The notes beneath the pieces were generated by a model. That model searched no databases. It worked only from the letters and a program-made list of their open reading frames with translations, and was not told the origin of the DNA. The translations under genes and the position numbers were made by a program. A stretch of 64,000 bases of DNA from Candidatus Anstonella stagnisolia (lineage in GTDB: Archaea > Micrarchaeota > Micrarchaeia > Anstonellales > Anstonellaceae), in contig CABMCJ010000004.1 of the NCBI GenBank assembly GCA_902384585.1, positions 322,086 to 386,085 of the forward strand. The letters are read 5' to 3'. Positions 1,548 through 43,826 of this stretch are shown here, one piece after another (position 1 is the stretch's first letter; each line of letters begins with the position of its first letter).

Positions 1548-2444
1548 GTGCATGATGATGCGGGGTATTTTGACTTGGCGACCAAGGACATGGCAGTGGA
1601 CTTGAGAAGGGAAATCGTGCCTGCGCTTGAGGCAATGGGGCTGAAAATCGAGATGGGGCACCACGAGGTTGCGCCAGGGCAGCACGAGATTGATTTTAGG
1701 TACGGGGAGGCGCTCTCAATTGCGGACAGCGTGCTCACGTACAAGACGACTGTGAAAACATTGGCAAGAAAGTACGGGCTGCACGCATCCTTCATGCCAA
1801 AGCCGGTTTTCGGGATAAACGGCTCAGGGATGCACGTGCACCAGTCGCTTTGGAAAAACGGGGAAAATGCGTTCTACGATGCGAATGATGCATATTTGCT
1901 CTCGCAAACTGCGAGGCACTACATTGCGGGCATATTGCACCATGCAAGGGCATTGAGCGCAATTACAAACCCCACTGTGAACTCGTACAAGAGGCTTGTG
2001 CCTGGGTATGAGGCGCCGGTGTACGTGTGCTGGGGCAGGATAAACCGAAGCGCGCTCATAAGGATTCCAAGGGCGCTTGCAGGAAAGCCGGGCGGGACAA
2101 GGGCGGAAGTGCGCTTCCCTGACCCGTCTGCAAACCCGTACCTTGCGTTTGCCGCGATGCTTGCGGCAGGGCTGGACGGGATTGCGAAAAAAATGGAGCC
2201 GCCAAAGCCCATTGAGGAGAACGTGTACCATTTTGATGACAGGAAGCTTTCGGAAATGTACATAAAGACGCTGCCGGGCTCCCTAAAAGAGGCAATGGAC
2301 GAGCTTGCGAAGGATGAGGTCGTGAAGGGGGCGCTTGGGAAGCACGTATATGAGAGCCTTACTACAGTGCAGCAGGCGGACTGGGATGAATATAGGCTTT
2401 CAGTAAGTGACTGGGAGAAAAAGAGATACTTCCCTGTCCTGTAG
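1548..2444 (+). CDS. glnA: glutamine synthetase, catalytic part (reading frame continuous from 1524)
   Basis: GS motifs HHEVAPGQHEIDF, NGSGMHVHQSL, NSYKRLVPGYEAP and SALIRIP. Together with 1089..1523 it gives about 451 codons, the normal GS-I length. Confidence 0.9.
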   Translation: MHDDAGYFDLATKDMAVDLRREIVPALEAMGLKIEMGHHEVAPGQHEIDFRYGEALSIADSVLTYKTTVKTLARKYGLHASFMPKPVFGINGSGMHVHQSLWKNGENAFYDANDAYLLSQTARHYIAGILHHARALSAITNPTVNSYKRLVPGYEAPVYVCWGRINRSALIRIPRALAGKPGGTRAEVRFPDPSANPYLAFAAMLAAGLDGIAKKMEPPKPIEENVYHFDDRKLSEMYIKTLPGSLKEAMDELAKDEVVKGALGKHVYESLTTVQQADWDEYRLSVSDWEKKRYFPVL

Positions 2445-2471
2445 CGATGCAGGGGGGAGGGTCAGGATTAA

Positions 2472-2514
2472 ACCTAAAACTGGGGAGGGGGCTTGCCCCC
2501 TCCGCGGTTTAGGT
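2472..2514 (+). terminator. 19-bp GC-cored hairpin between the two glnA 3' copies (terminator-like)
   Basis: Hand fold: ACCUAAA-a-CUG-g-GGAGGGGGC-UU-GCCCCCUCC-g-CGG-UUUAGGU. It ends directly before ATG 2515. A role in termination is inferred from position only. Confidence 0.45.
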
Positions 2515-2664
2515 ATGGACGAGCTTGCGAAGGATGAGGTCGTGAAGGGGGCGCTTGGAAAGCACGTGTACGAGAGCTTGACTGCTGTACAACAAGCAGA
2601 CTGGGACGAATACCGGCTCTCTGTGAGCGACTGGGAGAAAAAGAGATATTTTCCAGTACTGTAG
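2515..2664 (+). pseudogene. orphan duplicate of the last 49 codons of glnA
   Basis: Collinear with 2295..2444, no indels, 22 nt differences. The encoded peptide is identical except T to A (MDELAKDEVVKGALGKHVYESLTAVQQADWDEYRLSVSDWEKKRYFPVL). Confidence 0.9.
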
Positions 2665-2689
2665 CGAACGAAAAAACAAGTAATTTAAA

Positions 2690-3892
2690 TTGCAAGGGAA
2701 TAAGGAATGCATGAGAAGCATGAATTCCCTTGCAGTTTTGCTTTCTTTTGCTATTTTATTTGCTTTGCTTTTTGGGTGCACAATGCCCTGGGAGCAGCCT
2801 GCGCCAACGCAGCCAACTGAGCAGCCTGCGCAGAACACAACGCAGGTGGAAAACCAAAGCAGCACGCCGGTTGTGAATGAGACGGTTGCGAACGAAACGC
2901 AGGAGCCGGGGATTGACTGGGGCGAAGTTGCGGGAAACGAAACGCAGGGGCAACTCCCTGTTGAAAATGTTACGCAGGAAAACAATGTTACCCTGCCACA
3001 AGAAAACGGAACAAACGCCACAGAGAATGGCACGATTGACCTGAAAACTCCCTTTAGCAGGCCCAAGGACTCGCACGACATCGCAAACGGGACTTTCGGG
3101 CTCGTGCAAACACCGGATGCGGCGCTCAACGTGTATTTCATAGACGTGGGCTTTGGGAACTCGGTGCTTGTGAACAAGGGCACGTTCAACATGCTTATTG
3201 ATGCCGGGCCGGCTTCGCAGGGGGGCAAAGTGGCGTCATTTGTAAGCGCGCACGGGATAAGCGGGCTTGACGTTGTTGTTGCAACGCACGATGATGTGAA
3301 CAGCATTGGCGGGATTCCGACAGTGCTCGCAAGCATCCCGACGCAGGAAGTGTGGACGAACAATGTGAGCTCCAACAGCACGCAGTACAATGCGCTTATG
3401 AATGCGATAAATTCCCAGGAGAGGCCCGTGAAATACCCTGTTGCAAAGCAAACGCTTTTTGTGAACGGGCTTAATATCTCCATAATGAACCCGCAAAAGG
3501 ACAAGTTGAGGGGAAGCTCGGAATCAGACGCGATAATAATGAGGCTTGAATACGGGGACTTCTGCATCGTGCTCCTTGACCCCACAGTGCATGAGATTGA
3601 GCCGGCGCTGCTTTCAAGTGGCGTTCCGGTCGGGAAATGCCAGGTCGTGCAATACTTTAACAGGGGCGAGGGAAGGGGCGGCATGGAAGGCTATTCCACG
3701 CTTGTGGAGGGGAACATGAACTCGCTTAAGGACGTTGTGATAAGCGTGGGCCCAAGCCAGTACGACTTGCCAAGCCCGACAACGCTGGACAGGTTTGAGA
3801 TACACGGATGGAACGTGTACCGCACGGACACGGGCGGGACAATTACGGTAAGTTCTGACGGGAAGAATTATACCATAAGCAAGGAGAAATAA
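2690..3892 (+). CDS. secreted/lipoprotein-like metallo-beta-lactamase-fold protein (ComEC C-terminal-domain-like), metal motif degenerate
   Basis: Signal/lipobox-like N-terminus (LLSFAILFALLFGC). Asn-rich NxT/S tract. MBL-like core VYFIDVGFGNSVLV...MLIDAGP...VVVATHDDVNSIGG. The start may be M8 or M11 of the ORF. Confidence 0.65.
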   Translation: MQGNKECMRSMNSLAVLLSFAILFALLFGCTMPWEQPAPTQPTEQPAQNTTQVENQSSTPVVNETVANETQEPGIDWGEVAGNETQGQLPVENVTQENNVTLPQENGTNATENGTIDLKTPFSRPKDSHDIANGTFGLVQTPDAALNVYFIDVGFGNSVLVNKGTFNMLIDAGPASQGGKVASFVSAHGISGLDVVVATHDDVNSIGGIPTVLASIPTQEVWTNNVSSNSTQYNALMNAINSQERPVKYPVAKQTLFVNGLNISIMNPQKDKLRGSSESDAIIMRLEYGDFCIVLLDPTVHEIEPALLSSGVPVGKCQVVQYFNRGEGRGGMEGYSTLVEGNMNSLKDVVISVGPSQYDLPSPTTLDRFEIHGWNVYRTDTGGTITVSSDGKNYTISKEK

Positions 3893-3907
3893 AAAGAAGA
3901 AGCAAGC

Positions 3908-6900
3908 CTAGTTTTCAGGGACTTTTTTTATTTTTGCGATGTTTGTTGCGGTTGTGAGCTGTATGCCCACTATTTTTGAGCCCTCGTCGGTTTTCATCAC
4001 GCCTAGCGCAATGTCGGAGGAGGAGAGGATTGCATCGTTGTGGCTCACCACTACGAACTGCGTGTTGGAGGAGAGCTGGCGAAGCAGCCCTGCGAGCTTG
4101 CGCGAATTCTCCTTGTCAAGGGCAGCATCCGCCTCGTCAAGTATGTAGAAGGGGGATGCCTTGTGCATCTGTATTGAGAATATGAAGAGGAGCGCAAGGA
4201 GCGACTTTTCCCCTCCGGACATGGAATCTATGTAGCGCTCGTGCAATGCATCGCGCACCTTTATCTGCAAGCCTGAGTTGAACGGGTCTGAGGGCTGCTC
4301 AAGCAGGAGCGAGCCTTCGCCCTTGAACACAAGGTTGAATAGCTTCTTGAAGTTTGCGGCTATGCCGTTGAAAGTGGAAAGGAAAATGTCGCGCTTCTTT
4401 GCATCTATCTCCTCTATCATGTGCAGCACTGCGGTCTTTTCGTCTGCAAGAAGGGCGAGCTTGGACTGCACTTCTGCAATGTCCTTTTTCTTTTCCTCGT
4501 AAAGTTCGGGCGCTTTCAGGTTCACTGCGCCAAGGGAAGTTATTTTCAGGTCGGATTCCTTTATGATGTCCTCAAGCTGCGCCTTGGGCGCATCCATGAG
4601 GGCGGGCGGGCTTGCGCCAAAGCTCTCAAGCTCAACCTTGTAGTCCGCAAGCTTGCTTTCAAGTATGGACTTCTTTGCCTCAAGGTCTGAGAGCTGGCGC
4701 GAAAGGGTATCTGAGGAAAACTGGAGCTTGCCGCGCTCTGCGGAAAAGCCGGAGAGCTCCTCTTCAAGGGACTTTAGCTGCGCAAAGAGCTTTTGCATTG
4801 AGGCGCTCAGGTGCGTGAGCTCTTCCTCCTTTTGGGATAAGAGCTTGGAATTTTTCTCGCTCTGTGCGGTGAGCTCCTCTGCCTGCTTTTTGGAAGAGGC
4901 TTGCTCGGAAAGAAGGCCCTTGCGCTCTGTTTCAAGCTCGCTGTCCTGCTCGCGAAGCAGGGAAAGCTCGCCCTCTTTTGTTTTTATGGAAGAATCAAGC
5001 TCTGAGCGGGTTTCAAGGAAGGAACGCAGCTCCTGTGCGTGCGCATCCTCCTGCTTTTGCTCGGTTTGCTCCTCTGTTGCGATGGAGGCGGAAATGGACT
5101 CGCGCTCCTGCTGCATCTTTTCTATCTGCGAGTTTAAGGAGAGAAGCTCCTTTTCCTTTTGGGAAATCTGCTGCCTTAGGGAATCCGAGCCTGTTTGGAC
5201 TGATGCAATCTTTTCCTTCATGGACTCTATGGACTTGCGCTGGGCTGCCATGCTGTCTATTTCAAGCTCTATGCCTTTTGACTTGAGCTCAAGCTCTGCC
5301 TTTTCCCTGCGCTTCTTTGAAATGCTCTCGCGTATGGAATAGAGTTCGCTGTATGCGCCCTCGCGCTCTTTTTTGAGGTCCTCTATGTCGGACTCAAGCT
5401 TTTGGAGCGCGCTCTTTGAGAGTATGCTGGACTTTGCGCTGCCGCCGGTTATTATGCCGGAGCGCTCAAGCAGCTCGCCATCAAGGGTGGACATGCGCGC
5501 TTTCCCTATGCCGACTTTCTTTGCGGACTCAACGTCCTTTACGAGGAGCGTGTCGCCAAACACGTAGGACATTGCAGAAAAATATTTGCGGTCGCAGGAA
5601 ACGTAGTCAAGAACGAGCCCAAGGGAGCTTGGGGACTTTGAGGCTGCATTGGATTCTGCGGAAATCGCGCTTTGGGGGCGGTCAAGGGGAATGAAAGTGC
5701 ACCTGCCTGCCTTTTGGGACTTGAGCCTCTCTATTGCGGCTGTTGCAACGTCAAGGGACTCCACTATCACGTAGGTGAGGCGGTTTCCCGCGCACGCCTC
5801 TATTGCGCGCGAGTATTCCGGCTCGAATTTTATGAGGTCTGCGACAGTGCCGTAAATGCCCTTTATGGAAGAGCGCATTTCAAGCACGGATGAGATTGCG
5901 GGATTTGTTGCGGATGCCGAGACGCTTGCGCGCAGTATCGCGTGCTTTTCCTTGAGCTCAAGCATGCGCCTGTCAAGGAGAGGGATGCTCTTGTTCAGGT
6001 CCTTTTCCTTTGAGAAGAATTTGTCTATTTCCTTTGCAAGCGAATCTATGTCGGAAGAGATGTTGCCCTTTTCCCCCTCGAGCTTTTCGTTTGAGAGTTT
6101 GGGAAGCGAAGAGGTAAGGGACTGTATTTCGGAAAGGCGCATTGTGAGCATTTCCTTGCTCTTTGAAATGTCCGAAGAAAGGGAGGCGCGGGATTCGCGG
6201 GACTGCTGCAAGGAAGATACAAGGGAATCGAGCTTGGAGCGTATTGTGGAAAGCTTGGAGCTCTCGGACTTTTGCTGCTCGCCTTCCAGGGAAGATATTT
6301 TTGCGTTGAGGTCCTTTAGCTGCGTTTTTAGTTTTGAGATTTCGCCTGAAAGCTGCTGCACCTTCTTTTTTTGCAAGTCTTTTTTTCCTGCAAGCTCCTT
6401 GAGGCGGGCGTCTATGCGCGTGAGGTCCTTTTTCCTCTCCGTAAGGGAGGCTGCTGCTGCGGAAATCTCCACCTTGAGCTGCTCTATTTGCTTAAGCGTG
6501 CCATCGCGGGCGTTTTGCGCGTTTGCCTTTGCGGAAAGCTCTGCGCGCCTTGCCTCAAGTGCAGTTACTTTTGAGTCCAGCGTTGAGAGGCCCTCTGCGA
6601 GCTTTTCGCGCTCTGCCTTTGCTGCAATGTATTTTTGGGAAACTTCTGTGTGCTGCCTGCTCTGGTGCTCATGCTCGCGCTTTACGATTGTGTAGCGCGC
6701 GCCCTTTCTTTTTTCCGTTGCATCGTTGTATGCAAGGGCTGCGTCGCGCTCCTTTTCAAGCTCGCCCAAATATGCAACACGCTCTGAGAGCACGATGTTG
6801 GAATCCGAGATTTTGCGCTCGACTTTCTCAAGCTCGTTCATTGCCTCTTTCTTTTTCTCCTCAAACTCGGAAATGCCTGCGACAGTGTCTATTATTTCGC

Positions 6901-8124: not shown

Positions 8125-8127
8125 GAA

Positions 8128-8625: not shown

Positions 8626-8669
8626 GCAAGTAAAACAAATGCAAGTAATATAAAAGTGAGTGGGGATGT

Positions 8670-13279: not shown

Positions 13280-13316
13280 TTTTGTGCATTTAGGTTAAAA
13301 AGTGTTTTGGTCAGGA

Positions 13317-13346
13317 TTAGTCTTCGCCTTCCTTGTAAAGGGTTGG
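13317..13346 (-). repeat. relic copy of the XPF gene tail, directly after the glyoxalase stop
   Basis: Minus strand CCAACCCTTTACAAGGAAGGCGAAGACTAA versus the XPF end ACAACACTTTACAAAGAAGAGGAGGACGGCTAA. 24 of 30 aligned nt are identical, with one 3-nt gap. Encoded tails are PTLYKEGED* versus TTLYKEEEDG*. Confidence 0.6.
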
Positions 13347-13730
13347 TTATTTTGGTTCGTAAAGCTCAATTGGAATCCCGTCAGGGTCGCGCAGGAAACA
13401 GAACCATGCGCATGTTGTGCCCTTTACGGGTTTGTCTATGTCAATGCCCTTTCTTTTCAATTCCGCGTATTTTTCCTTAACGCTATTGACTTGGATGCTT
13501 ATGTGCCTAAGCCCGATTAGCTTGAGGTTCGAGCAATCGTCTTTGCCTTTTATTGAACTCTTGAATTGGAAAATCTCCAGCTGCATGCCTTCCAGTTGCA
13601 TGATGGTTGCGCTGCCGTCCCAATCGGGTTTTGTGAAAGTGCGGATTTGCGAAAACCCAAAATTTTCCTTATAGAAAGTGGCTGTTGTTTTTGCGTCCTT
13701 TACGGTAATTGCGATGTGGTGCACTCTCAT
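13347..13730 (-). CDS. VOC/glyoxalase-family protein
   Basis: 127 aa. MRVHHIAITVKDAKTTATFYKENFGF is a typical glyoxalase/bleomycin-resistance fold start. The ATG lies 1 nt after the XPF stop. Confidence 0.8.
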   Translation of the reverse strand: MRVHHIAITVKDAKTTATFYKENFGFSQIRTFTKPDWDGSATIMQLEGMQLEIFQFKSSIKGKDDCSNLKLIGLRHISIQVNSVKEKYAELKRKGIDIDKPVKGTTCAWFCFLRDPDGIPIELYEPK

Positions 13731-13731: not shown

Positions 13732-14397
13732 TTAGCCGTCCTCCTCTTCTTTGTAAAGTGTTGTGAGTATTTTTCTTATTTCTTTCGCTTTCTTTTCTCC
13801 CATCTTTTCCACTTGTGCGAGTTCGCTTTCAGGCGCGGTTACCACGTTCTCTATTGTGTAGAAATACTTGAGTAGGGATTTTGCGAGCGTGGGGCCAACC
13901 CCTGGGAGGGACTCTATTATGCCCCGCTGCGCCTGCGCGGAAGTGAAGGCTTTCTTTTTTGCGAATACGCGCAGGGTGGATTTTCTTGCGAGCTGCTCGT
14001 GCTTTGCGAGCGCGAATACGAGTTCTGCGGTTGCGTCAAGGGAGCGCGTGAAGAAGAGCGAGCAGCCGTAATCCGTCATTATTGCGGAGTATGTGCCTAA
14101 GAGGGCTGCTCTGGAAAGGCGGGTTTCCTTGGGTGCATCGCCCTCTATGATGACAATTGCGCATTCGTAGTTTTGCTTCATTTGGGAGAGCTGGGAGAAT
14201 AGGCGTCCGTCTAGAATAGAGCTCTCGAAATCGCTCCTTGTTTTCCGTTCTATGCATGTGCGTTCCGAGGTAAGGAAATCCCCTATTTCGAGGGTGCGCA
14301 CTTCCACTATTGCATTTAGGGAAGAAAGCTGCTCTTTTACGCCGGAGCGCTCCCTTTCGTCCACTACAATATGTGGGTAATCTTGTTGGGCAGGCAT
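13732..14397 (-). CDS. short archaeal XPF/ERCC4-type structure-specific nuclease with C-terminal HhH2
   Basis: ERCC4 core VVDERERSG...LEIGDF...IERKTRSDF...GRLFSQ and an HhH region LPGVGPTLAKSLLKYF. Confidence 0.85.
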   Translation of the reverse strand: MPAQQDYPHIVVDERERSGVKEQLSSLNAIVEVRTLEIGDFLTSERTCIERKTRSDFESSILDGRLFSQLSQMKQNYECAIVIIEGDAPKETRLSRAALLGTYSAIMTDYGCSLFFTRSLDATAELVFALAKHEQLARKSTLRVFAKKKAFTSAQAQRGIIESLPGVGPTLAKSLLKYFYTIENVVTAPESELAQVEKMGEKKAKEIRKILTTLYKEEEDG

Positions 14398-18151: not shown

Positions 18152-18258
18152 GGGCCGATAGCTTAGCCTGGTTGGAGCGTTCGACTGATAAATTTTTGCC
18201 CTCAGGGGCGAAAACTTTTGAAATCGAAAGGTCGGGAGTTCAAATCTCCTTCGGCCCA
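18152..18258 (+). tRNA. tRNA-Ile (anticodon GAU) with a 32-nt intron at 37/38
   Basis: Hand fold: acceptor GGGCCGA/TCGGCCC, D stem GCTT/GAGC, anticodon stem TTCGA/TCGAA with loop CTGATAA, T arm GGGAG-TTCAAAT-CTCCT, discriminator A. Intron about 18191..18222. No encoded CCA. Confidence 0.9.
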
Positions 18259-18263
18259 TAGAC

Positions 18264-18300
18264 AAACCTCATAGGGGGGCTAGCGCCCCCCTTGCGGTTT
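18264..18300 (+). terminator. AAACC...GGGGGGC/GCCCCCC...GGTTT hairpin followed by a T-run, 6 nt after tRNA-Ile
   Basis: 7-bp G/C core (18274..18280 with 18285..18291), a 4-nt loop, an AAACC/GGTTT base, then TTTTT. Confidence 0.45.
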
Positions 18301-18341
18301 TTCCTTGATTTCCCCTTCACCCCCCTCAAAGAAGGTTAGCC

Positions 18342-18461
18342 ATGGACAACGACGATGTTTACAAGCCGTGCCCGCAGTGCGATACCATGATGAATGCAAT
18401 TAGGGGCAGCAAGAATGCGAAGTGCCCAAACTGCGGATTCAAGGACTCGTGCTGTTTCTAG
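18342..18461 (+). CDS. small Zn-ribbon protein (39 aa), below the ORF-track cutoff
   Basis: MDNDDVYKPCPQCDTMMNAIRGSKNAKCPNCGFKDSCCF has two CxxC pairs. AAGGT lies 5 nt upstream of the ATG. Confidence 0.5.
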   Translation: MDNDDVYKPCPQCDTMMNAIRGSKNAKCPNCGFKDSCCF

Positions 18462-18489
18462 ATGGAAAAGCGCGCCCGGATTGCTGTTT

Positions 18490-19062
18490 CTAGATGAAGT
18501 ATCCGCCCAAGTAGAAGCCAGTATAGGCGATAAAGAGGTACTTTACTATTTTTCCCGCGATTGTTGCAAGCAGGAATTTCCAGAGCGGCATTTTTATTGC
18601 GCCTGCCGCAATCCCTGCAATATCCAGCACGGGATTTGGAAGCGCAGAGAGGACGAAAATTGCGGGCATTCCGTATTTTTGCAATCCTTTCTTGTGCTGC
18701 AGATAGATTTTTGTGTGCGAAACCTTGCTGCTGCCGGAATATCCTACGAGGTAGCTTGTGAGTTCGCCTATTCCTGAGCCAACACCTGCAACAAAGCCCA
18801 CAAGCAGCGGGTTGAGGAATGCGCTCATTGCAAAAATTATTGCAAACCCTGGGGCTGGGAGGAACATTGTTGCACTGGAAACGAGTGCGATTATGAAAAC
18901 TCCAGGATATCCGAGCTGTATGAATAGTTCTGAATTCTTGGAAAATTCCGAGGAAAGCACGAATGCGCCAATTGAGATGCCGATTGCAAAAAGTAGCGTG
19001 AAAAGGCTTTTTGCATTTTCAAGCGTGAGGAGGCTTTTCTTTTTCATGCTGTTCTTTTTCAT
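18490..19062 (-). CDS. DedA/VTT-domain (SNARE-associated) membrane protein
   Basis: Start moved to MKKNSMKKKS (19062), because the upstream 99 codons of the track ORF overlap proS on the other strand. Multi-TM protein with motif GIGELTSYLVGYSG...LSALPNPVLDIAGIAAG. Confidence 0.78.
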   Translation of the reverse strand: MKKNSMKKKSLLTLENAKSLFTLLFAIGISIGAFVLSSEFSKNSELFIQLGYPGVFIIALVSSATMFLPAPGFAIIFAMSAFLNPLLVGFVAGVGSGIGELTSYLVGYSGSSKVSHTKIYLQHKKGLQKYGMPAIFVLSALPNPVLDIAGIAAGAIKMPLWKFLLATIAGKIVKYLFIAYTGFYLGGYFI

Positions 19063-19113
19063 ATGAGGGGAGTTTGCACGGCAAGGTTTTAAAGAATTGC
19101 AAGCAAATCGAGT

Positions 19114-20568
19114 GTGATAGATATGAGAGTCAAAAAAGATGCGAATTTCTCTGAATGGTATACTGAGCTCATAAAGGAGGCAGAGCTTGCGGACATACGC
19201 TACAATGTGAAGGGGTTTGTTGTTTTCCAGCCGTGGTCTGTAATGAGCATGATGAAGATGTACCGCATGTATGAGGCTGAGCTTGAGGGCACGGGGCACT
19301 TGCCTGCGTGGTTTCCTGCACTCATTCCTGAAGGGAATTTTCTTAAGGAAGGCGAGCACGTGAAGGGGTTTGCGCCTGATGTTTTCTGGGTTACGGAGGC
19401 TGGAGGAAATCCCCTTGAGGAGAAACTTGCAATGCGCCCGACTTCGGAAACCTCAATGTACCAGATGTATTCGCTCTGGATACAGGGGAAAAAGGACTTG
19501 CCGCTTAAAATTTACCATTCCTCGCAGGTGTGGAGGCATGAAACAAAAGCAACGCGGCCGTTCATAAGAAGCCGTGAGTTTTACTGGATAGAGGCGCACG
19601 ATGCATTTGCTACTTATGAGGAAAGCGTTGCGCAAGTGAAAGAGGACATGGAAATGGCGCAGAACGTCATACACGGGAAATTCGGGGTGCCTTTTGTATT
19701 TTTCTGCCGCCCTCAGTGGGACAAGTTCCCTGGGGCGCTGAACACTTATGCTGCTGACTGCATGATGCCGGATGGGAAAGTGCTGCAGTTGCCCTCTACG
19801 CATTTGCTTGGGCAGAACTTTGCGAAAGCGTTTGATGTGAAATATCAGGATGAGAGCGGAACTTATGTACATTGCTGGCAGACGTGCTACGGGCCCGCGA
19901 TTTCGAGAATATATGCTGCGATAATATCCACGCACGGAGACGACAAGGGGCTTGTGCTTCCATTTGAGCTTGCACCTGTGCAGGTTGTTGTTGTGCCCAT
20001 TCCTAAGAAAGGAGAGAAGAATGAGAACCTTGACAAGAAGGCGGATGAGATTGGGAAGAAACTCAAAGAGCACGGGCTGCGCGTTGCAGTGGACAAGAGC
20101 GACAACACTCCGGGATTCAAGTACAACCACTGGGAGCTCAAAGGCGCGTGCGTGCGCGTTGAGGTTGGAATGCGCGAGCTTGAGAGCAATGAGTTTGTAG
20201 TTGCAAATAGAGTTACAGGAGAAAAATTGACCGTGAAAGCGGACAAGCTGGCTGGTGAAATAGAAAAGATGGGAACTCATATGATTTCTCTTCTTAAGAA
20301 GAAAGCTGATGAGAAATTTGCAGCAACGCTTGCAAGCGCAGAGAGGATGAGCGAGCTTGAGAAGGCGCTTAAGGCTGGAAAGCTTGTGAAAGTCGCATTC
20401 TGCACAATGGAAATGCAAGGGAAAGCATGCGCGGATGAGGTAAAGAGCAAGACTGCAGGAGATGTGCGGGGAACCCGGTATGATGCGCACGAGAAGCCGA
20501 AAGAGAAGCGGTGCATTGTGTGCGGCAAGCCTGCGGCTGAGTACGTGTATGTTGCAAGACAGTACTAA
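19114..20568 (+). CDS. proS: prolyl-tRNA synthetase, archaeal/eukaryotic type
   Basis: 484 aa. FSEWYTELIKEAELADIRYNVKGFVVFQPW at the N-terminus, class II motifs, and the C-terminal Zn-binding domain ending ...YVYVARQY. The first ATG is at 19123. Confidence 0.93.
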   Translation: MIDMRVKKDANFSEWYTELIKEAELADIRYNVKGFVVFQPWSVMSMMKMYRMYEAELEGTGHLPAWFPALIPEGNFLKEGEHVKGFAPDVFWVTEAGGNPLEEKLAMRPTSETSMYQMYSLWIQGKKDLPLKIYHSSQVWRHETKATRPFIRSREFYWIEAHDAFATYEESVAQVKEDMEMAQNVIHGKFGVPFVFFCRPQWDKFPGALNTYAADCMMPDGKVLQLPSTHLLGQNFAKAFDVKYQDESGTYVHCWQTCYGPAISRIYAAIISTHGDDKGLVLPFELAPVQVVVVPIPKKGEKNENLDKKADEIGKKLKEHGLRVAVDKSDNTPGFKYNHWELKGACVRVEVGMRELESNEFVVANRVTGEKLTVKADKLAGEIEKMGTHMISLLKKKADEKFAATLASAERMSELEKALKAGKLVKVAFCTMEMQGKACADEVKSKTAGDVRGTRYDAHEKPKEKRCIVCGKPAAEYVYVARQY

Positions 20569-20618
20569 AAGTAGGGTTTGATTTTTAAGGTCTTTATTTC
20601 ATATCTTTAGTGTACGCT

Positions 20619-20776
20619 AGCCCCGTCGTCTAGCGGCCAAGGACACTGGGCTTTGAACAACCCTTTTTGCGCCTCCAGATGGGCACGGCGCAAAAAGCGT
20701 TGACGGAAACGTCAACAGAAGATGAAAAGGGTTGCGAAGAAACCCAGTTACAGCAGTTCGAATCTGCTCGGGGCTA
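20619..20776 (+). tRNA. tRNA-Gln (anticodon UUG) with an 85-nt intron at 37/38
   Basis: Hand fold: acceptor AGCCCCG/CGGGGCT, D stem GTCT/GGAC, anticodon stem CTGGG/CCCAG with loop CTTTGA-[intron 20657..20741]-A, T arm AGCAG-TTCGAAT-CTGCT, discriminator A. A relaxed bulge-helix-bulge can be drawn (CUUU/GAAG central helix with GAA and AAA bulges). Confidence 0.88.
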
Positions 20777-20786
20777 TTCTTTTTCT

Positions 20787-31385: not shown

Positions 31386-32903
31386 ATGGGAAGCGCGCTT
31401 GAGGAAATGGGCACGGTCATTTCGACTTTTGAGGGGCCAACTACGGTAGTTTTCTCTTTTGTAGTCGGAAGCAAGAACGTGCGCAAGGGGCAGTTCGTGC
31501 AGGTGGAAGCCGAAGACGGGCTTGTGCTGGGTTCCGTGAGCGAAATCACTAGGGCGAACCGGTATTTTGAGAGCGCGGAGAGCGTTGCGGAATACGAGAG
31601 GAGTTCCCCAATGAGCACGAACTTTCCTACAACTGACTGGGAATACATTATTGCGAACGTGCGCGTGCACGGGATGTTCAAGGGGGGCTTAATGATAAGG
31701 AGCACTTTCCCTGTTGCGCCTGGGATAAAGGTGCACTCTGCGGACGAGGAGCTTTTGAAGAAATTCCTGCATTTTGAGGAGAATGGATTGTTCCTTGGAA
31801 CGCTTGCGAACCACAAGCTTGAGGCAAAGGTGAATTTGAACAAATTGCTGCAAAAGCACCTGGCAATACTTGCGATGTCGGGAAGCGGAAAGTCCTACCT
31901 TGCGAGCGTGCTTATTGAGGAGCTCATGGAACGAAAAGCTGAGAAGGGAAGGATGGGCATTGTGATAATTGACTCGCACGGGGAGTACGCGGGATTCCGC
32001 AGTTCGCAGTACGGGAAAAGCGTGAGCATAGTTGATGGGAAGAAAATACGCATACCGCTTAGGAAAATTGCGCCTGCGCTCCTTTTCACATGGATGCCGG
32101 ATGCGAGCAGCCAGCAAAAAAGGGAGCTTGAGAAAATAATGCTGGAGCTGAAAAAAGACGGGGAGCAGACGCACAATTCTTATGGGCTATCAGAACTTGT
32201 GGAAAAAATAAATGCAAGCGAGAACCTTGACAAGAAGAGCAAGCCCGCACTTCTTGGGTGGGTTGGGGAAATACGCTCACTTAAGCTCGTTGGGAAAGAG
32301 GAGTACCCGAAAATAGGGGAGCTTGTGAAGCCGGGGTGCGCGTCCGTTGTGGACCTGAGCGGGATTGACGGGGAGAAAAAGAAGCAGGTAATTGTTTCGT
32401 ACGTTGCAAAGAAGCTCTTTTCCATGCGCAAGAAAGAGAAAATTGCGCCCTTTGTGCTCATGCTGGAAGAGGCGCACAACTATGCGCCTGAGAAAATGAC
32501 AAGGAAGGTTGCGCTTGCAAAGGGAGCGATTGAGACGATTGCAAGGGAAGGGAGGAAATTCGGGGCGTCGCTTTGCCTTATATCGCAGCGCCCCGTGCAT
32601 CTTTCTGTGACTGCGCTTTCGCAGTGCAACACGAACATCATATTGAGGGTAACAAACCCCAACGACATAAAGAGGATTGGGGAGAGCTGCGAGGGAATTG
32701 ATGATGCAATGCTTTCCTCCATCACTACATTGAGGGTTGGGGAGGCGCTCCTTGTGGGGGAAGCGACGGGCTCGCCTGTATTTATAAAAGTAAGGCAGAA
32801 AAAATCTTCATGGATTCCAAAGGGGCAGGACTTGGAAGAGATTGCACGGAAATTTGAAGAAGCAATCGTGAAGAAAAAAACGGAAGTGGAAGCGTTCCTG
32901 TAA
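31386..32903 (+). CDS. HerA-like (DUF87/FtsK-HerA superfamily) ATPase
   Basis: N-terminal barrel-like region, Walker A AMSGSGKSY and Walker B VLMLEEAH. 505 aa, typical of archaeal HerA. Confidence 0.82.
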   Translation: MGSALEEMGTVISTFEGPTTVVFSFVVGSKNVRKGQFVQVEAEDGLVLGSVSEITRANRYFESAESVAEYERSSPMSTNFPTTDWEYIIANVRVHGMFKGGLMIRSTFPVAPGIKVHSADEELLKKFLHFEENGLFLGTLANHKLEAKVNLNKLLQKHLAILAMSGSGKSYLASVLIEELMERKAEKGRMGIVIIDSHGEYAGFRSSQYGKSVSIVDGKKIRIPLRKIAPALLFTWMPDASSQQKRELEKIMLELKKDGEQTHNSYGLSELVEKINASENLDKKSKPALLGWVGEIRSLKLVGKEEYPKIGELVKPGCASVVDLSGIDGEKKKQVIVSYVAKKLFSMRKKEKIAPFVLMLEEAHNYAPEKMTRKVALAKGAIETIAREGRKFGASLCLISQRPVHLSVTALSQCNTNIILRVTNPNDIKRIGESCEGIDDAMLSSITTLRVGEALLVGEATGSPVFIKVRQKKSSWIPKGQDLEEIARKFEEAIVKKKTEVEAFL

Positions 32904-33033
32904 GAAAAAATTGCGTGGGAAGCAGGGAAACGAGACGGGAAGCGTTCCTGAAGAAAGTGCGGAAAGTTGAGGCGTTCCTGTGAAAAGCGCGGGAGCGGGA
33001 AGCAAGAAAACAAGTTTGGAGGCGTTCCTGTGA
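32888..33033 (+). repeat. four copies of the herA-tail / downstream-gene start junction motif (G[GA][AG]GCGTTCCTG + TAA/AAG/TGA/TGA)
   Basis: GCGTTCCTG at 32892, 32942, 32972 and 33022 (spacing 50, 30, 50). The two 50-nt units also align over their 3' 35 nt (27/35 by hand). Confidence 0.85.
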
Positions 33034-33938: not shown

Positions 33939-33975
33939 CATACTGGTTTTTTAAGGTGTAATGAGATAGTATATT

Positions 33976-38141: not shown

Positions 38142-38175
38142 GAGTCGCTATCTGCGGCAAATAATAAAAGGCGAA

Positions 38176-38454: not shown

Positions 38455-38483
38455 GAAGGGAGTATTGCAGCAAGCAATAAAAG

Positions 38484-39359: not shown

Positions 39360-39390
39360 GGATATGCTGTGGTAAAAAGAGCTTAAAAAG

Positions 39391-39660
39391 TTATAGCCTG
39401 TCCACGCTAGTTATCTCGACTTGGGAAACTCCCTGTATTTTGGATGCCTTTTCCTCAAGCGAATCTGAGCCGCCTGGGGCGTCGTCTATTATGATGAGAA
39501 GGGTGATTGCCTTCAAACCGAATGCGATGGGCTCTTCCGAGATTTTTGAGGGCGCGAGGGTGTCAAAGATTTTTTTCTTGAGCGCCTCGAAGTTGTCCAT
39601 GTTCTCTGGAAGGATTTTCATTTCTACTGCTACTTTGCCCATAAGTTTCACCTTTTGCAA
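39391..39660 (-). CDS. translation elongation factor aEF-1 beta
   Basis: 89 aa. GKVAVEMKILPE...AFGLKAITLLIIIDDAPGGSD...VSQVEITSVDRL is the typical aEF-1beta pattern. Confidence 0.85.
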   Translation of the reverse strand: MQKVKLMGKVAVEMKILPENMDNFEALKKKIFDTLAPSKISEEPIAFGLKAITLLIIIDDAPGGSDSLEEKASKIQGVSQVEITSVDRL

Positions 39661-39813
39661 TTAAGGCCCTTCGACGCCGCACTTGTGGCATTTGTAAGGG
39701 TTTGAGATAAGCCTGCAGTGCTGGCATCGGGCGAGTTTTGTCCCGCAGCCTGGGCAGGCGAACTCTGAGAATGTTTTTGTCTGCTTGCCGCATGTAACGC
39801 AATTTTTCAGCAT
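39661..39813 (-). CDS. Zn-ribbon RNA-binding protein (COG2888-like, 50 aa), below the ORF-track cutoff
   Basis: MLKNCVTCGKQTKTFSEFACPGCGTKLARCQHCRLISNPYKCHKCGVEGP has four CxxC pairs and occupies the conserved archaeal position immediately upstream of aEF-1beta. Confidence 0.7.
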   Translation of the reverse strand: MLKNCVTCGKQTKTFSEFACPGCGTKLARCQHCRLISNPYKCHKCGVEGP

Positions 39814-39919
39814 GTAAAATCACCTGTAATGGGATAATATTGGAGGAGGGGTATTTTAACCATTTCTATCTGCTTGCCTGCGGCAGGAATAAATACCTTA
39901 ATGGGCAGAATACTCTTGC

Positions 39920-39993
39920 GCCCTCGTAGTCTAACCTGGATAGGACACAAGCTTGCGGAGCTTGGGATCCGAGTTCAAATCTTGGCGAGGGCG
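39920..39993 (+). tRNA. tRNA-Arg (anticodon GCG), no intron
   Basis: Hand fold: acceptor GCCCTCG/CGAGGGC, D stem GTCT/GGAC, anticodon stem CAAGC/GCTTG with loop TTGCGGA, T arm CCGAG-TTCAAAT-CTTGG, discriminator G. 74 nt. Confidence 0.92.
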
Positions 39994-40004
39994 TTTTGCT
40001 TCTT

Positions 40005-40940
40005 TTAAATTCTTCCAACTGCCGCAAGCTTAAGGAGAAGGACCTGCTTTTCAAGCTCGCCAAGGCGCACTTTTTCCTGATAAACGTTGAAATTCTTGCG
40101 CTCTATTTTTTGGAGGACCTCGTGGTATACGCCGCCCATCACTACGGTTGCAAAGCGGGAATCGTCAGTGAAGTTCTTCATCCCGCAGAAAGCCTTTTGG
40201 TAGTAGGAATGTGCGCGCCTTGCCTGGAATTTCATCAGTGAATAGTATGAGGAGTTCATAACGCCGCGAAGAAGCTCGCTTTCGGAATAGCCGAAGCGCT
40301 CAAGCTCTTCAAGCGGGATGTATATGCGCCCTTTTTTCGCATCCTCCCCGACGTCGCGCAGGATGTTTGTAAGCTGCAATGCGATTGAGAGGTAACGCCC
40401 GTATTTCTTTGCATTCGGGCTGTTGCAGCCAAAAATGTGAAGGGAGATGCTGCTTATCGTGGTTGCAACAAGCTCGCAGTATGTGAGCAGCTCCTGGAAA
40501 TTCTTGTAGCGGGAAATCGTGAGGTCCATCTTGCAGCCGCGTATCAGGCCCAGGTAGGGCGCTTTTGGGATGTTGTAGCGGTGCACTGCGTCCGAAAGCG
40601 CAATCATTATGGGGTGCGTCGCCTTGTTTTTGTATGCGGAATGCAAATCCGCTTCCCAGCGCGAGAGAAGCCAGTGCACGCCTTTCCCTTTTTGCTCGTC
40701 CACTATGTCGTCTGCATAGCGGCAGAATGCGTAGGAAGCGTACACTGCGTTGCGCTTTTCCTCTGGGAGGAACTGGAAGCCGAGGTAAAAGTTCGTGTCG
40801 CACTTCTTTGTAACTTCGTGGCAGTAGGAATAGGCTTTCTTGAGAACCTCGGATGGAAAGTGCTGCGCATAGGCGCGCTCTTTTGCTTTTGTAGTGATTA
40901 TCTTTGAAGACACCATTCGCACCTTGCTCCGTGTTTGCAC
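40005..40940 (-). CDS. squalene/phytoene synthase family prenyltransferase
   Basis: First Asp-rich motif YAFCRYADDIVDE and second motif NILRDVGEDAKKGRIYIP. Confidence 0.88.
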   Translation of the reverse strand: MQTRSKVRMVSSKIITTKAKERAYAQHFPSEVLKKAYSYCHEVTKKCDTNFYLGFQFLPEEKRNAVYASYAFCRYADDIVDEQKGKGVHWLLSRWEADLHSAYKNKATHPIMIALSDAVHRYNIPKAPYLGLIRGCKMDLTISRYKNFQELLTYCELVATTISSISLHIFGCNSPNAKKYGRYLSIALQLTNILRDVGEDAKKGRIYIPLEELERFGYSESELLRGVMNSSYYSLMKFQARRAHSYYQKAFCGMKNFTDDSRFATVVMGGVYHEVLQKIERKNFNVYQEKVRLGELEKQVLLLKLAAVGRI

Positions 40941-41998
40941 TTTTTGTTCCGCTTTGCTCCCATTGCAATTGAGGCGAGAGAATTTTTAAGCATTGAGGGG
41001 GCGTAAAGGGAAGAAAGGTATTGCTGGAAATCCTTTTTTGGGGGGGAGGAAAGGAAATGCGAAATTCCCCGCTCGCCTGCAGCTTCAAGCGCTATTCGCA
41101 GCAGGGCCGCGGTTTTGAATTTTTCAAGGAACTCGTTTTTCCAGAGCGGGTCAAACTCCACGTTGTGCAGTATGCTCTGTGCCGCGAGCATTCCGCTTCT
41201 TATGCAATAGCGCAAGCCTATCCCAAGGGAAAGGTCCTGGAAGCCCGCAGCCTCCCCTATGTAGAGCTTTTCGTTTTCCTGCGCGGTTTTGGGAAGGAAA
41301 AAATTCACGTAGCTTGCCTTTGTTTCGCCTTTTTCAAGCGCGCTTTCCTTAAGGAAGAATTCGCGTGCGAAAAGCGAGGTTGCTTTTCTGTGGTAGGATG
41401 CAAGGTTGGGCAAATCGGCGGTTATTGCGGTGCCAAGGGTAACGCGGCCGCCGTCGGAAAGGATGTATGCATAACCTCCGCTTGGCGCGATTTTATTGCC
41501 AAGAATTACGGCGCAAATATCTTTTCCCAAATCCGCATCAAAAGAGGTCTCCATTGCAGAACCATCTATGCTGGATGGGCCGGTTGCGAATATGTCTGTT
41601 TGCTCGTAGGGAAGCGTGCTTGAGAAATGCACCTGCGCGCCAAAGTGCTGCGCGCTTTTGAGAAGGGCGGAATCAAGCGAATCTGGTTCCCTTCCCCTGC
41701 GGATAAGGTGCCAGTAGGGCTTTTTGCTTTTGAACTCCGCGCATCGCATTTTCTCGTCGTACGCGAGGAAAGAATGCTGCGGCTTGCAAAAGAAATCCGA
41801 GGATATGCCTGCTGCTTTCAGTTGCTCTGGGAAAGGGGTTTGCCCTGTCCAGTTCTCAAGCACCTGGAAGGAATTTGTGAAACGCGGCGAAAGTACGGGT
41901 GCGCGCTCGTGCACGTGGGATTCTATGCCGTCTTTTGCAAGCATTGCCGCGCATGCAAGCGCGGATGGGCCTCCGCCTGCGATTTGTATTTGCGTCAC
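40898..41998 (-). CDS. FAD-dependent oxidoreductase (geranylgeranyl-reductase / desaturase-like)
   Basis: N-terminal dinucleotide-binding motif IQIAGGGPSALACAAMLAKDG. 366 aa. Overlaps the start of the synthase gene, so they are probably co-transcribed. Confidence 0.78.
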   Translation of the reverse strand: MTQIQIAGGGPSALACAAMLAKDGIESHVHERAPVLSPRFTNSFQVLENWTGQTPFPEQLKAAGISSDFFCKPQHSFLAYDEKMRCAEFKSKKPYWHLIRRGREPDSLDSALLKSAQHFGAQVHFSSTLPYEQTDIFATGPSSIDGSAMETSFDADLGKDICAVILGNKIAPSGGYAYILSDGGRVTLGTAITADLPNLASYHRKATSLFAREFFLKESALEKGETKASYVNFFLPKTAQENEKLYIGEAAGFQDLSLGIGLRYCIRSGMLAAQSILHNVEFDPLWKNEFLEKFKTAALLRIALEAAGERGISHFLSSPPKKDFQQYLSSLYAPSMLKNSLASIAMGAKRNKKCKHGARCEWCLQR

Positions 41999-42106
41999 AG
42001 GGGAGAATTGCAGAGCAGGTTATTATTTTGTTGCCCTCTGGTAGATATTTATATATTTTCGTGGTCATATAACGCGTTATATAATTGGCGGTTAGGGGAT
42101 GTAATA

Positions 42107-42844
42107 ATGGATTATAAGCCTGATTCTTTAGCATTTGGAAGCATTGCTGCGCCTTTAACACGAAACACCTGCCCGGGGGCAGGCATGCTGGCTTTGTCTG
42201 CTGTGGCAGAGAGGAAATTGACCCGGTTCAGGAATGCGCTTTTGGAGATGGAAGAAGGCGGGAGGGGTTTGAAAAACCAGAGTGAAATGCTTAAGCGCAT
42301 AGGGGAAGCAATGGATAATGCGATTGCGGAACATGGAAAACGTGCCGGTTCGCTCGCTTTTTATACCGCGCTGAAGATGGGGGCAGGCACTGATGACGCT
42401 TATAAGCTGTTCTGGTGCGGACTCCTGCATGATGCATGCAAAATGTTTGTGAACGGGAATTTTATTGAAAAGCCCCACAAGCTTGAACAGGAGGAAATGG
42501 AAGAAGTGAGAATGCACGTAAGGATAGTGCATCTTGTTGCAGACAGGGTTAAGTGGCTTGCAGGGGTTGAGGACGCAATGAGGTACCACCATGAGAATTG
42601 GGACGGAAGCGGATATCCAAATGGCTTGAAAGGGGAGGAAATACCGCTTGCGGCAAGGATAGTGGGAGTGGTGGATGCGTTTGATGCGATGGTGGATGGG
42701 AAAAGGGAATACAAAAAACCCCTAGATTATGATGAGGCTATTGCGGAACTGGAAAGAGCTTCTGGGACGCAGTTTGACCCGAATGTTGTCCGGGCGTTTG
42801 TAGAAATGTTCGGGGAACGCAATGAAGCGCAAAAGGCGGAATAG
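42107..42844 (+). CDS. HD-GYP-type HD-domain phosphohydrolase
   Basis: GLLHDACK...HHENWDGSGYPNGLKGEEIPLAARIVGVVDAFDAM. Start moved to ATG 42107, because the upstream part of track ORF 41627..42844 overlaps the oxidoreductase on the other strand. Confidence 0.83.
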   Translation: MDYKPDSLAFGSIAAPLTRNTCPGAGMLALSAVAERKLTRFRNALLEMEEGGRGLKNQSEMLKRIGEAMDNAIAEHGKRAGSLAFYTALKMGAGTDDAYKLFWCGLLHDACKMFVNGNFIEKPHKLEQEEMEEVRMHVRIVHLVADRVKWLAGVEDAMRYHHENWDGSGYPNGLKGEEIPLAARIVGVVDAFDAMVDGKREYKKPLDYDEAIAELERASGTQFDPNVVRAFVEMFGERNEAQKAE

Positions 42845-42847
42845 GGA

Positions 42848-43705
42848 TTATTGCAGCTCGTCAAGTATTTTGCTTATGTCCACGTTTTCTATTGGGCGCT
42901 TGCACGTTGGCATCTCGGAAAGGTGCGGGATGCCGTCCTCGTAAGTGGGCTTATCCTCCTTGTAGAAAACCCCGATTGGGATTTTGTCGCCCCACTCAAA
43001 AGTTTTTGCAAATGCAGCCTGCTTGTCCTCCGCATTGTGGTTCTTTTCATCAAGCTTGTACACGCGCTGCATGAAGTATTGGTAGGTATTTAACTTGTTG
43101 AAAGTGACGCAGGGCTGCAGCACGTCTATGAGGGAAAAGCCCTTGTGATTTATGCCGCCGAGTATTGTATTTACCATGTGGGGCAAATCCCCTGAGAAGG
43201 TGCGCGCAACGTAAGTAGCGCCCGAGGAAATCGCAAGCGCCAGCGGGTTCACAGGGTCTTCAAGCACCCCGTGCGGCGTGCTCTTGGATTTGTAGCCTTT
43301 TTCGCTTGTGGGCGAAGTCTGCCCTGTTGTAAGCCCGTACACCTGGTTGTCGTGCACTATGTAAGTGATGTCCAGGTTGCGGCGCATTGAATGTATGAAA
43401 TGCCCCATCCCGATTCCGTATCCGTCGCCGTCGCCTCCGACTGCGATTACTGTGAGGAGATGGTTGCCCAGCTTAACGCCGGTTGCGACTGGAAGCGAGC
43501 GGCCGTGCAGGGACTCGTATGCATACGTTTTCATGAAATGCGGGAGCTTTCCGGAACAGCCTACTCCGGAAACAACTACTGTGTCCTTTGGGTCTATCTC
43601 GCTTTTTGCAAGCGCGTTCTTTAGGGATATCAGGATTGGGAAATTCCCGCAGCCTGGGCACCATTCGGGCGCGTGGCCGCTTTCGTATTGTTGGACTGTT
43701 GCCAT
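42848..43705 (-). CDS. korB: 2-oxoacid:ferredoxin oxidoreductase beta subunit (TPP-binding)
   Basis: MATVQQYESGHAPEWCPGCGNFPIL...GVGCSG...GGDGDGYGIG. Start at ATG 43705. The 21 extra codons of the track ORF lie in the insert. Confidence 0.92.
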   Translation of the reverse strand: MATVQQYESGHAPEWCPGCGNFPILISLKNALAKSEIDPKDTVVVSGVGCSGKLPHFMKTYAYESLHGRSLPVATGVKLGNHLLTVIAVGGDGDGYGIGMGHFIHSMRRNLDITYIVHDNQVYGLTTGQTSPTSEKGYKSKSTPHGVLEDPVNPLALAISSGATYVARTFSGDLPHMVNTILGGINHKGFSLIDVLQPCVTFNKLNTYQYFMQRVYKLDEKNHNAEDKQAAFAKTFEWGDKIPIGVFYKEDKPTYEDGIPHLSEMPTCKRPIENVDISKILDELQ

Positions 43706-43778
43706 AAGATTACCTACTGATATAATTTCCGTCAACGCTTTTTGCGCCGTACCCGCCTGGAGGCGCAAAAAGGGTTGT
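43706..43778 (-). other. 73-nt insert in the korB start region; its first 53 nt (43778..43726) are homologous to the tRNA-Gln intron
   Basis: Minus strand ACAACCCTTTTTGCGCCTCCAGGCGGGTACGGCGCAAAAAGCGTTGACGGAAA versus intron 20657..20709, which differs at 3 positions, all in the loop between CTTTTTGCGCC and GGCGCAAAAAG. Confidence 0.85.
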
Positions 43779-43826
43779 GCACCATTCTGGCGCGTGGCCG
43801 CTTTCGTATTGTTGGACTGTTGCCAT
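43779..43826 (-). repeat. upstream duplicate of the first 48 nt of korB (opens a 38-codon uORF)
   Basis: Identical to 43658..43705 except for one synonymous position (CCA versus CCC). It starts 8 nt after the korA stop, which is the expected natural korB start position. Confidence 0.9.

Follow-up and report, generated by a model that had tools for sequence, protein, structure and literature searches.

What are the short pieces of DNA that separate repeated gene ends and repeated gene starts in the genome of Candidatus Anstonella stagnisolia (Micrarchaeota), and how did they come to lie there? The question is raised by a stretch of 64,000 nucleotides (nt) of this genome (C4:322086-386085, hereafter the window), for which an original prediction, made from the letters alone, had listed five loci with a gene boundary duplicated around extra DNA. 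All five duplications were present, namely the 3' end of glnA (153 nt), the start of korB (49 nt), the tail of an XPF nuclease gene (26 nt, around a whole gene), the junction of a Zn-ribbon and a DedA gene (15 nt) and the end of herA (four copies). What had been missed is that the glnA and korB inserts are members of two dispersed families of tRNA-associated hairpins, here called element G and module I, and that flank repeats are a statistically supported hallmark of element G. The composite theme, with tRNA-associated hairpin elements that enter protein-gene boundaries, accompanied by direct target duplication, at its core, is given an about even chance of being right.

The assembly (G000; 1.33 Mb in six contigs, among them C1, C2 and C4; about 50% GC; 89% complete) was compared with a genome of the same genus (G001), with a further relative (G006) and with single stretches in other assemblies (L-numbers). 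All structures were read from assembled sequence. Gene identities in the window were obtained by Pfam scans of about 50 of its open reading frames (ORFs), and the coordinates of the features are collected in Table 1.

The glnA insert is a copy of element G, which is composed of a G-rich head and a GC hairpin terminating in GCGGTT(T/C)(A/G)G (predicted fold: -31.8 kcal/mol, z = -2.6). It showed 83-85% identity to the DNA adjoining the 3' end of tRNA-Ala(CGC) (C1:100639-100709). Copies in most relatives were 80-95% identical to it, while glnA itself reached only 65-82% there. Conservation against the flank is confined to the 3' end of the element, the left side being variable. A census of public genome assemblies with a 23-base pattern located element G in 106 stretches, mainly from Micrarchaeota, with some from Altiarchaeota and Iainarchaeum and one assembly each from Woesearchaeota and Thermoplasmatota; nearly all records with the repeat are labelled Candidatus Micrarchaeota. 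More than 20 copies were found in a single Micrarchaeota assembly (MAG085; L020-L024 and L060-L067), many of them as part of a common longer unit and of arrays that also contain other small hairpins, frequently at the ends of contigs.

The korB insert (43726-43778) was 94% identical to the first 53 nt of the tRNA-Gln intron (20657-20709). This segment, module I (predicted fold: -23.1 kcal/mol, z = -2.7), opens the canonical-position introns of tRNA-Gln, tRNA-Glu(UUC), tRNA-Glu(CUC), tRNA-Ala(UGC) and other tRNA genes in G000, and likewise introns of tRNA-Trp, Glu, Asp and others in G001 and G006. Several tRNA genes of one genome thus share the same intron sequence, as in the mobile tRNA-intron families of Thermoproteales type. 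A few copies are free-standing, including one at C1:19548-19600 that is flanked by the 10-nt repeat GCTCTCTCAA. Additionally, a conserved hairpin of about 65 nt, family C, is located directly 3' of several tRNA genes (window 18259-18325; C1:98358-98447; C4:410284-410344; C4:671515-671661), the 3' end of the element facing the 3' end of the tRNA. No Rfam 15 family exceeded its gathering threshold for the glnA or korB insert, the matches being at chance level only, and elements G and I were absent from the 2.9 million viral contigs of IMG/VR. A further intergenic repeat family was noticed in G000 (eight copies, up to 169 nt; C1:59639-59807, C1:68989-69157, C2:79082-79185, C4:797361-797419 and four more).

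At glnA, the two tails (2295-2447 and 2515-2667) aligned over 153 nt with 85.6% identity (self-BLAST, E = 1e-41). The initial 44 nt are identical between the copies and the remainder is 80% identical, which looks like a crossover point. The 22 nucleotide differences affect all four bases and fall in 20 codons, 19 of them changed synonymously; the synonymous divergence claimed in the original prediction was thus nearly pure, save for one Thr/Ala replacement. A hand estimate, which assumes 11 random substitutions in an unconstrained copy and 25-35% synonymous changes, puts the chance of at most one altered codon at about 1e-4 to 2e-3. Because a freely decaying ghost copy would gather mostly replacement changes, both copies seem to have been shaped as functional gene ends, and this would require DNA from a diverged lineage, either as the insertion vehicle or as a later allelic overwrite of one copy. 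Recombination with DNA of related strains, as originally proposed, is thereby supported, at least as a component of the explanation. Eight residues are common to both copies and different in G001, so the copies are each other's closest relatives; at the variable sites, G001 as outgroup agreed 9:9 with the two copies, without preference for either.

The glnA site is empty in G001, where the stop codon is followed by ggatgcagggg and then by the A-rich spacer that in the window comes after copy 2. Microhomology was seen at both ends of the insert: GGACGAG stands directly 3' of element G at both glnA and tRNA-Ala, and at the left junction the G-run of element G overlaps the gcagggg of the empty G001 site. 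The glnA gene also contains an in-frame TGA (1521-1523), where G001 has a Ser codon, resulting in frames of 144 and 298 amino acids. It could be the mark of a recent pseudogene, a sequencing error or a read-through codon, and it is independent of the tail duplication. The original description of the shared architecture therefore needs one correction: a directly repeated gene boundary, additional DNA separating its copies, a preserved gene and recurrence were all confirmed, but an intact reading frame at every locus was not. As a by-product of the duplication, an ORF of 85 amino acids (2407-2664) crosses element G into the ghost glnA tail.

At the korA-korB junction, the two korB starts (43658-43706 and 43779-43827) share 49 nt with 98% identity, or 65 nt with 89% identity when extended. 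The junction is empty in three other genera. G001 carries its own module I insertion there (L144, G001:C40), which is of a different subfamily, lies after codon 6 and is bordered by two identical copies of the 18-nt repeat ATGGCAACTGTTCAACAA; this repeat terminates in ACAA, which are also the first bases of module I. As the insertions of G000 and G001 differ, the junction was either hit twice, or an old insertion was remodelled. A 38-codon upstream ORF (uORF; 43706-43825) opens with the korB pseudo-start and stops 4 nt short of the true korB ATG.

A third element case in G000 lies outside the window (C4:532240-532376). Here a Tyr/Trp-tRNA synthetase gene (C4:531076-532275) has its final 37 nt present twice, with 32 of 37 positions identical, around a family-C hairpin of 62 nt (flank alignment z = 13.7). 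The two tail copies differ by three synonymous codons and one replacement, a divergence of about 14% as at glnA, and the site is empty in G001.

Recurrence beyond this genome was assessed on 94 copies of element G from other assemblies, by searching for an exact repeat between the DNA just 3' of the element and up to 200 nt 5' of it, with flanks paired across different loci as the null. The statistic refers to exact matches, since the null of a mismatch-tolerant version was disturbed by repeats shared inside one assembly. At 17 of the 94 copies, which came from unrelated assemblies, the flanks shared an exact repeat, between 13 and more than 60 nt long, whereas cross-paired flanks predict 0.15 at a length of at least 12 nt and 0 at 14 nt or more, so the repeats are far above chance. 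Among them are 3' ends of tRNAs, several covering the last 18-27 nt, and also 5' ends of tRNAs, starts of genes and sequence of other kinds. One relative (L083) has more than 100 identical nt repeated around element G, non-coding flank included. The edges of the repeats coincide with coding boundaries: in the 3' cases the repeat ends 0-3 nt past the stop codon, and in the 5' cases it opens with the start codon or a few nt ahead of it.

From these comparisons, we conclude that glnA, korB, the synthetase tail and many loci in relatives are most plausibly DNA-level insertions of small tRNA-associated hairpin modules with long, variable target duplication. Small non-coding hairpin elements of Micrarchaeota, which would normally reside inside the introns of tRNA genes, as module I does, or flush with the ends of tRNA genes, as do element G and family C, may occasionally enter protein-gene boundaries at the DNA level, and with each entry 10 to about 160 nt of the target would be directly duplicated. 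The visible events would be those whose duplication spans a start or stop codon. Such insertions survive because the duplication spans the gene boundary, so that one copy keeps the end of the upstream gene or the start of the downstream gene. We infer that the entry step is microhomology-guided and based on recombination or replication (template switching or one-sided illegitimate joining) rather than a transposase reaction. At least at glnA and the synthetase gene, one copy would additionally have come from, or been overwritten by, a related diverged lineage, with the protein kept and about 14% of the nucleotides different.

Several observations weigh against this insertion model. Its entry mechanism is inferred and not observed, and simple in-place duplication cannot give synonymous-only divergence without a second event. 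No flank repeat accompanies 77 of the 94 G copies, so duplication may not be obligatory, and several relatives have 17-85 nt of unique DNA between the left repeat and element G, which a clean target duplication leaves unexplained. Within the coding part, the two korB copies agree at 98% of positions, yet only 9 of 14 positions match just upstream, which is odd for one recent duplication. The only tyrosine recombinase of the genome sits directly beside the third case, adjacent to and not between the repeats, and since G000 is only 89% complete, an enzyme may be missing from the assembly. Finally, in 400-kb samples, boundary-associated short-range repeats numbered 8 and 1 per 400 kb in G000 versus 3 and 4 in two relatives that themselves carry the element families, and were thus not more frequent. 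The window is accordingly a local cluster and the whole genome is no outlier; an unusual richness of this genome in boundary duplications is not supported.

The search for enzymes gave a sparse picture. In line with the original statement, no integrase or transposase was seen in the window (Pfam scan of about 50 of its ORFs), and the search of the rest of the genome that had been suggested returned one tyrosine recombinase, a protein of 383 amino acids with a Zn ribbon (C4:529892-531043), encoded divergently next to the synthetase gene of the third case. G000 has no match to DDE_Tnp_1 (PF01609), no TnpB (PF07282) above cut-off, the Y1 and serine transposase types not having been searched, and no reverse transcriptase (PF00078). 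Several known classes were considered in this light. Classical insertion sequences (IS) and miniature inverted-repeat transposable elements were rejected, as the flank repeats are 10 to more than 100 nt rather than fixed and short, element G is conserved only at its 3' end instead of having terminal inverted repeats, and no cognate transposase was matched in the families searched; that the repeats, measured at 15-153 nt in the window, are longer than classical target-site duplications had been correctly noted before. The variable repeat length within one element family argues against a transposase with fixed staggered cuts. Insertion by target-primed reverse transcription was rejected because there is no reverse transcriptase, and a diversity-generating retroelement, whose variable/template pair is resembled by a gene 3' end with a nearby copy, for this reason and because the differences are not confined to adenines. 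For an integron cassette, in which element G would play the part of an attC-like site and the glyoxalase gene beside XPF that of the cassette, the ends resembled core sites only loosely, as judged by eye.

The synonymous divergence could also have arrived in a single step, a possibility that we regard as doubtful but substantial. DNA of a relative, in which the hairpin already stood right after the stop codon of the gene, would have undergone a homologous crossover in the gene, while the 3' end of the element was attached through microhomology further upstream in the resident copy of the gene; the tail of that copy would then be the ghost, and the element either a passenger or a preferred donor break point. 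Such an import would account for the synonymous-only differences, about 14%, both at glnA and in the synthetase tail, for the 44 identical nt followed by 80% identity at glnA, which fit a crossover inside the repeat, for the 7-9 nt of microhomology at the junction of the element with copy 2, and for the ghost copies being more G001-like at herA and the synthetase tail. Similarity that stops at the coding boundary is also expected if the non-coding flanks of the two lineages were too diverged. However, the illegitimate end must land upstream, never downstream, in every case, no donor lineage was identified, and three observations are left unexplained: perfect repeats of at least 100 nt in relatives that take in non-coding flank (L083), the repeat of 10 nt around the module I copy that stands free, and the two different korB insertions in sister species. 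Duplication first with allelic overwrite later, and one-step import with one illegitimate joint, cannot be separated on present evidence. A further possibility, which is rather unlikely, is an undescribed, enzyme-poor route in Micrarchaeota and archaeal lineages close to them. By this route, short structured tRNA-associated modules would copy themselves into new DNA sites and take a stretch of the adjacent gene along, for example by way of homologous recombination of small DNA circles or of excised RNA made circular, and every insertion would carry in a replacement gene end. If true, this route would give tRNA introns in tRNA genes and harmless boundary duplications at protein genes.

The tyrosine recombinase beside the third case could point to miniature integrative elements, in which the hairpin would be an attachment-site arm, the repeat an att core carried along, and the inserts non-autonomous or decayed elements with a replacement gene end. 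Many G copies do abut tRNA genes, several flank repeats are tRNA 3' ends, the classical integrase target, and disruption of tRNA genes by a recombinase-bearing element has been proposed (Sugahara et al. 2012, PMC3293823). Nevertheless, we consider this quite unlikely: repeat lengths vary between 10 and more than 100 nt, with unique host flank sometimes taken in, the inserts of 60-190 nt are gene-free, neither element was found among the viral contigs, and the synthetase tail site is empty in G001. Moreover, the repeat sequence differs from locus to locus (tRNA ends, protein tails and protein starts), which argues against a fixed attachment core, and a fixed att core was rejected on the ground that these sequences are unrelated. 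Remnants of integrative elements, put forward in the original prediction, are likewise a weak explanation, as the inserts measure 17-390 nt, the repeat sequence is another one at each locus and the viral contigs contain neither element. An explanation at the RNA level, with the element and one repeat copy forming a spliced intron of bulge-helix-bulge (BHB) type or an mRNA processing site, so that both copies are coding in different transcript forms, draws on module I being part of spliced tRNA introns and lying in sense orientation in korB, on the broad substrate specificity of the Micrarchaeota splicing endonuclease (PMC3239211), and on both glnA copies behaving as under protein-level selection. 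It is very unlikely, given that the korB copy is without the 3' intron half that pairs with module I in tRNAs, that no complementarity was seen between the exon ends at glnA, and that each locus encodes a complete gene without splicing. A simple BHB motif scanner found nothing convincing at korB, and the same scanner missed the true site in the tRNA-Gln control. Two co-assembled strains joined at a repeat might have produced false tandem copies, as the genome belongs to a set of metagenome-type assemblies and two strain alleles would show synonymous-only differences. The probability of this artefact is very slight, the lowest that we assign: unlike in a linearised bubble, shared downstream sequence does not follow the end of the element, the same architecture recurs in many independent assemblies made with different assemblers, G001 has, independently of this assembly, a korB insertion with two identical 18-nt copies, and the locus lies inside a contig of 920 kb.

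The XPF locus has the same layout as the insertions described above, with a whole horizontally shared gene as cargo. The repeat pair (13738-13763 and 13320-13345; 26 nt, 81% identity) brackets a glyoxalase gene and is weak when taken alone, a chance match of similar quality existing in the same 1.6 kb. The ghost tail, however, matches the true end of XPF in G001 at 26 of 30 positions, down to the stop codon, which we take as decisive for its being a displaced XPF end. XPF is followed by other DNA in G001 and G006, with a different gene there in G006. The glyoxalase gene had no DNA match beside XPF in 24 relatives, and its closest proteins (65-74% identity) come from Woesearchaeota, Micrarchaeia and Patescibacteria, a range that would fit a small, widely exchanged gene. 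Two details of this junction were also recorded. An 11-nt match to the head of element G on the opposite strand (window 13309-13319, GGTCAGGATTA) abuts the ghost XPF stop and is either an element remnant or chance, and on G001:C34 about 18 kb lie between XPF and a gene that is only 450 nt away in the window (13300/13738), pointing to a large insertion or rearrangement.

The two remaining loci are short local gene-end duplications without recognisable foreign DNA. At the Zn-ribbon/DedA junction, where the genes converge, an exact 15-mer occurs twice, 32 nt apart, with the Zn-ribbon stop in copy 1 and the DedA stop in copy 2. At herA, the last codons and the stop occur four times in 145 nt, the homology reaching about 35 nt upstream in units 2 and 4; G001 has a single tail and its next gene starts 10 nt later, the last window copy being the most G001-like. 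Tandem Repeats Finder (TRF) called no tandem array at either locus. A simple slippage tandem was rejected here, since the units are not alike over their full length, only cores of 15-37 nt align, the spacers are 48% alike and TRF was negative; at glnA and korB, a simple tandem was rejected because the spacer is a foreign repeat element. The idea that the herA spacers are copies of the start of the next gene was also discarded (only 48% identity). Ordinary duplication of the slippage type, followed by the same selective filter, is the probable origin of both loci. A single mechanism for all five loci is thus not borne out, herA and Zn-ribbon/DedA being without an identifiable foreign insert.

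Smaller duplications are found elsewhere in G000. At least six more cases have repeats of 14-21 nt around spacers of 21-34 nt, for example C4:201432/201487 with the stop codon included, and short-range direct repeats of at least 15 nt are enriched over long-range ones (99 vs 5-18). Separately, a 75-nt intergenic sequence occurs three to four times with 95-97% identity over 5.5 kb (C4:499577-505121; spacings 3.7 and 1.7 kb) and could represent the borders of inserted segments. The GC content is 0.45 at window 61-62 kb, in the glmS region.

Table 1. Coordinates of the features in the window (positions count from its first nucleotide)
Feature	Position	Strand	Basis
glnA (glutamine synthetase)	1089..2444	+	Pfam Gln-synt_C, E = 2e-125; translation aligns with G001 glnA
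glnA 3' end copy 1, functional tail, TAG at 2442-2444	2295..2447	+	self-BLAST, sequence
Element G, G-rich head of about 60 nt and GC hairpin, GGGGGAGGGTCAGGA..AAACTGGGGAGGGGG-loop-CCCCCTCCGCGGTTTAGGTAT	2452..2516	+	repeat-family matches, fold
glnA 3' end copy 2, ghost tail, open glnA-like frame, TAG at 2662-2664	2515..2667	+	sequence
Ghost XPF tail (PTLYKEGED*), immediately past the glyoxalase stop codon	13317..13346	-	repeat and G001 comparison
Glyoxalase/VOC gene between the two XPF tails	13347..13730	-	Pfam Glyoxalase
XPF/ERCC4 nuclease gene, current tail 13732-13763	13732..14397	-	Pfam ERCC4 and HhH; sequence
tRNA-Ile (18152-18258), then directly family-C hairpin (18259-18325), layout like element G	18152..18325	+	Rfam tRNA, ARAGORN, repeat family C
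Small Zn-ribbon ORF, ending in TGCTGTTTCTAG	18342..18461	+	sequence; conserved in G001
Two exact copies of TGCTGTTTCTAGATG (18450-18464, 18482-18496) around 17-nt filler	18450..18496	.	sequence
DedA-family membrane protein gene	18490..19359	-	Pfam VTT domain
tRNA-Gln(UUG), canonical-position intron of about 85 nt opening with module I (20657-20709)	20618..20777	+	sequence; ARAGORN gives another anticodon; Gln(UUG) and intron position read by hand
herA	31386..32903	+	Pfam DUF87 (HerA central domain)
herA tail core GARGCGTTCCTG(T)RA, four copies at 32889, 32939, 32969 and 33019	32889..33033	+	sequence
GalT-like gene	from about 33031		Pfam
korB, regenerated start ATG 43705-43703	42848..43705	-	Pfam TPP_enzyme_C, PFO_beta_C; sequence
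korB repeat copy 2	43655..43719	-	sequence
Module I, 53-nt hairpin core of tRNA introns, sense with respect to korB	43726..43778	-	94% identity to tRNA-Gln intron
korB start region copy 1, truncated pseudo-start (ATG and 45 nt), immediately 3' of korA stop	43779..43840	-	sequence
korA (2-oxoacid:ferredoxin oxidoreductase alpha subunit)	43835..45574	-	Pfam POR_N, POR, PFOR_II

Two wider points follow for such genomes. In practice, ghost gene ends and pseudo-starts mislead gene callers, as seen in the 85-amino-acid ORF at glnA, a TTG-extended korB and the uORF before korB. Moreover, tiny DPANN genomes without recognisable transposases still have their gene boundaries remodelled by elements and undergo mosaic recombination with related lineages.

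Among known systems, integrative elements that carry a replacement gene end, with integrases aimed at tRNA genes or gene 3' ends (compare the tRNA gene disruption model of Sugahara et al. 2012, PMC3293823), are similar in that a gene end occurs twice in direct orientation, with the functional copy facing the insert and the ghost beyond it, and in that tRNA ends are frequent targets. They differ in that the inserts described here are tens to hundreds of nt long, come without an integrase and have a different repeat at each site. Long target duplications that differ from copy to copy are known from IS1549 and IS1634, whose direct repeats vary from 8 to 514 bp and for which, in the account given in PMC2266710 (citing Plikaytis 1998 and Vilei 1999), there is no accepted mechanistic model. 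This is the only precedent that we found for such variable length. Those elements are described as being 1.5-2 kb long, with a DDE transposase and terminal inverted repeats, whereas hairpins of 53-65 nt with one conserved end are involved here, in a genome without DDE_Tnp_1. Homology-facilitated illegitimate recombination, reportedly described by de Vries and Wackernagel in 2002 for naturally transformable bacteria, is said to usually replace or delete resident DNA. It shares with the present loci one homologous anchor in the gene, one microhomology joint and the addition of DNA from a relative; unlike there, the loci described here consistently end up with a duplication, and the joint is occupied by a specific repeat element.

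The gain of tRNA introns in archaea is an old open question, for which direct DNA-level evidence is thin and comes mostly from one order of Crenarchaeota. In the Thermoproteales, near-identical introns across the tRNA genes of one genome imply gain by movement (Fujishima et al. 2010, Mol Biol Evol 27:2233, as cited in PMC3239211 and PMC4090602). As in those introns, as far as the citing papers portray them, a short non-coding sequence moves here without encoding an enzyme. Unlike them, the host phylum is Micrarchaeota, the module occupies the canonical 37/38 position, and it is also found at protein-gene boundaries, with target repeats of 10-62 nt and empty sites in relatives. To our knowledge, such target repeats were not reported in the 2010 study of the Thermoproteales introns. 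The loci described here thus offer dated and polarised insertions of intron-type modules outside tRNAs, and their empty sister sites, together with a footprint of long, variable repeats ending at start or stop codons, constrain the mechanism by which such modules move.

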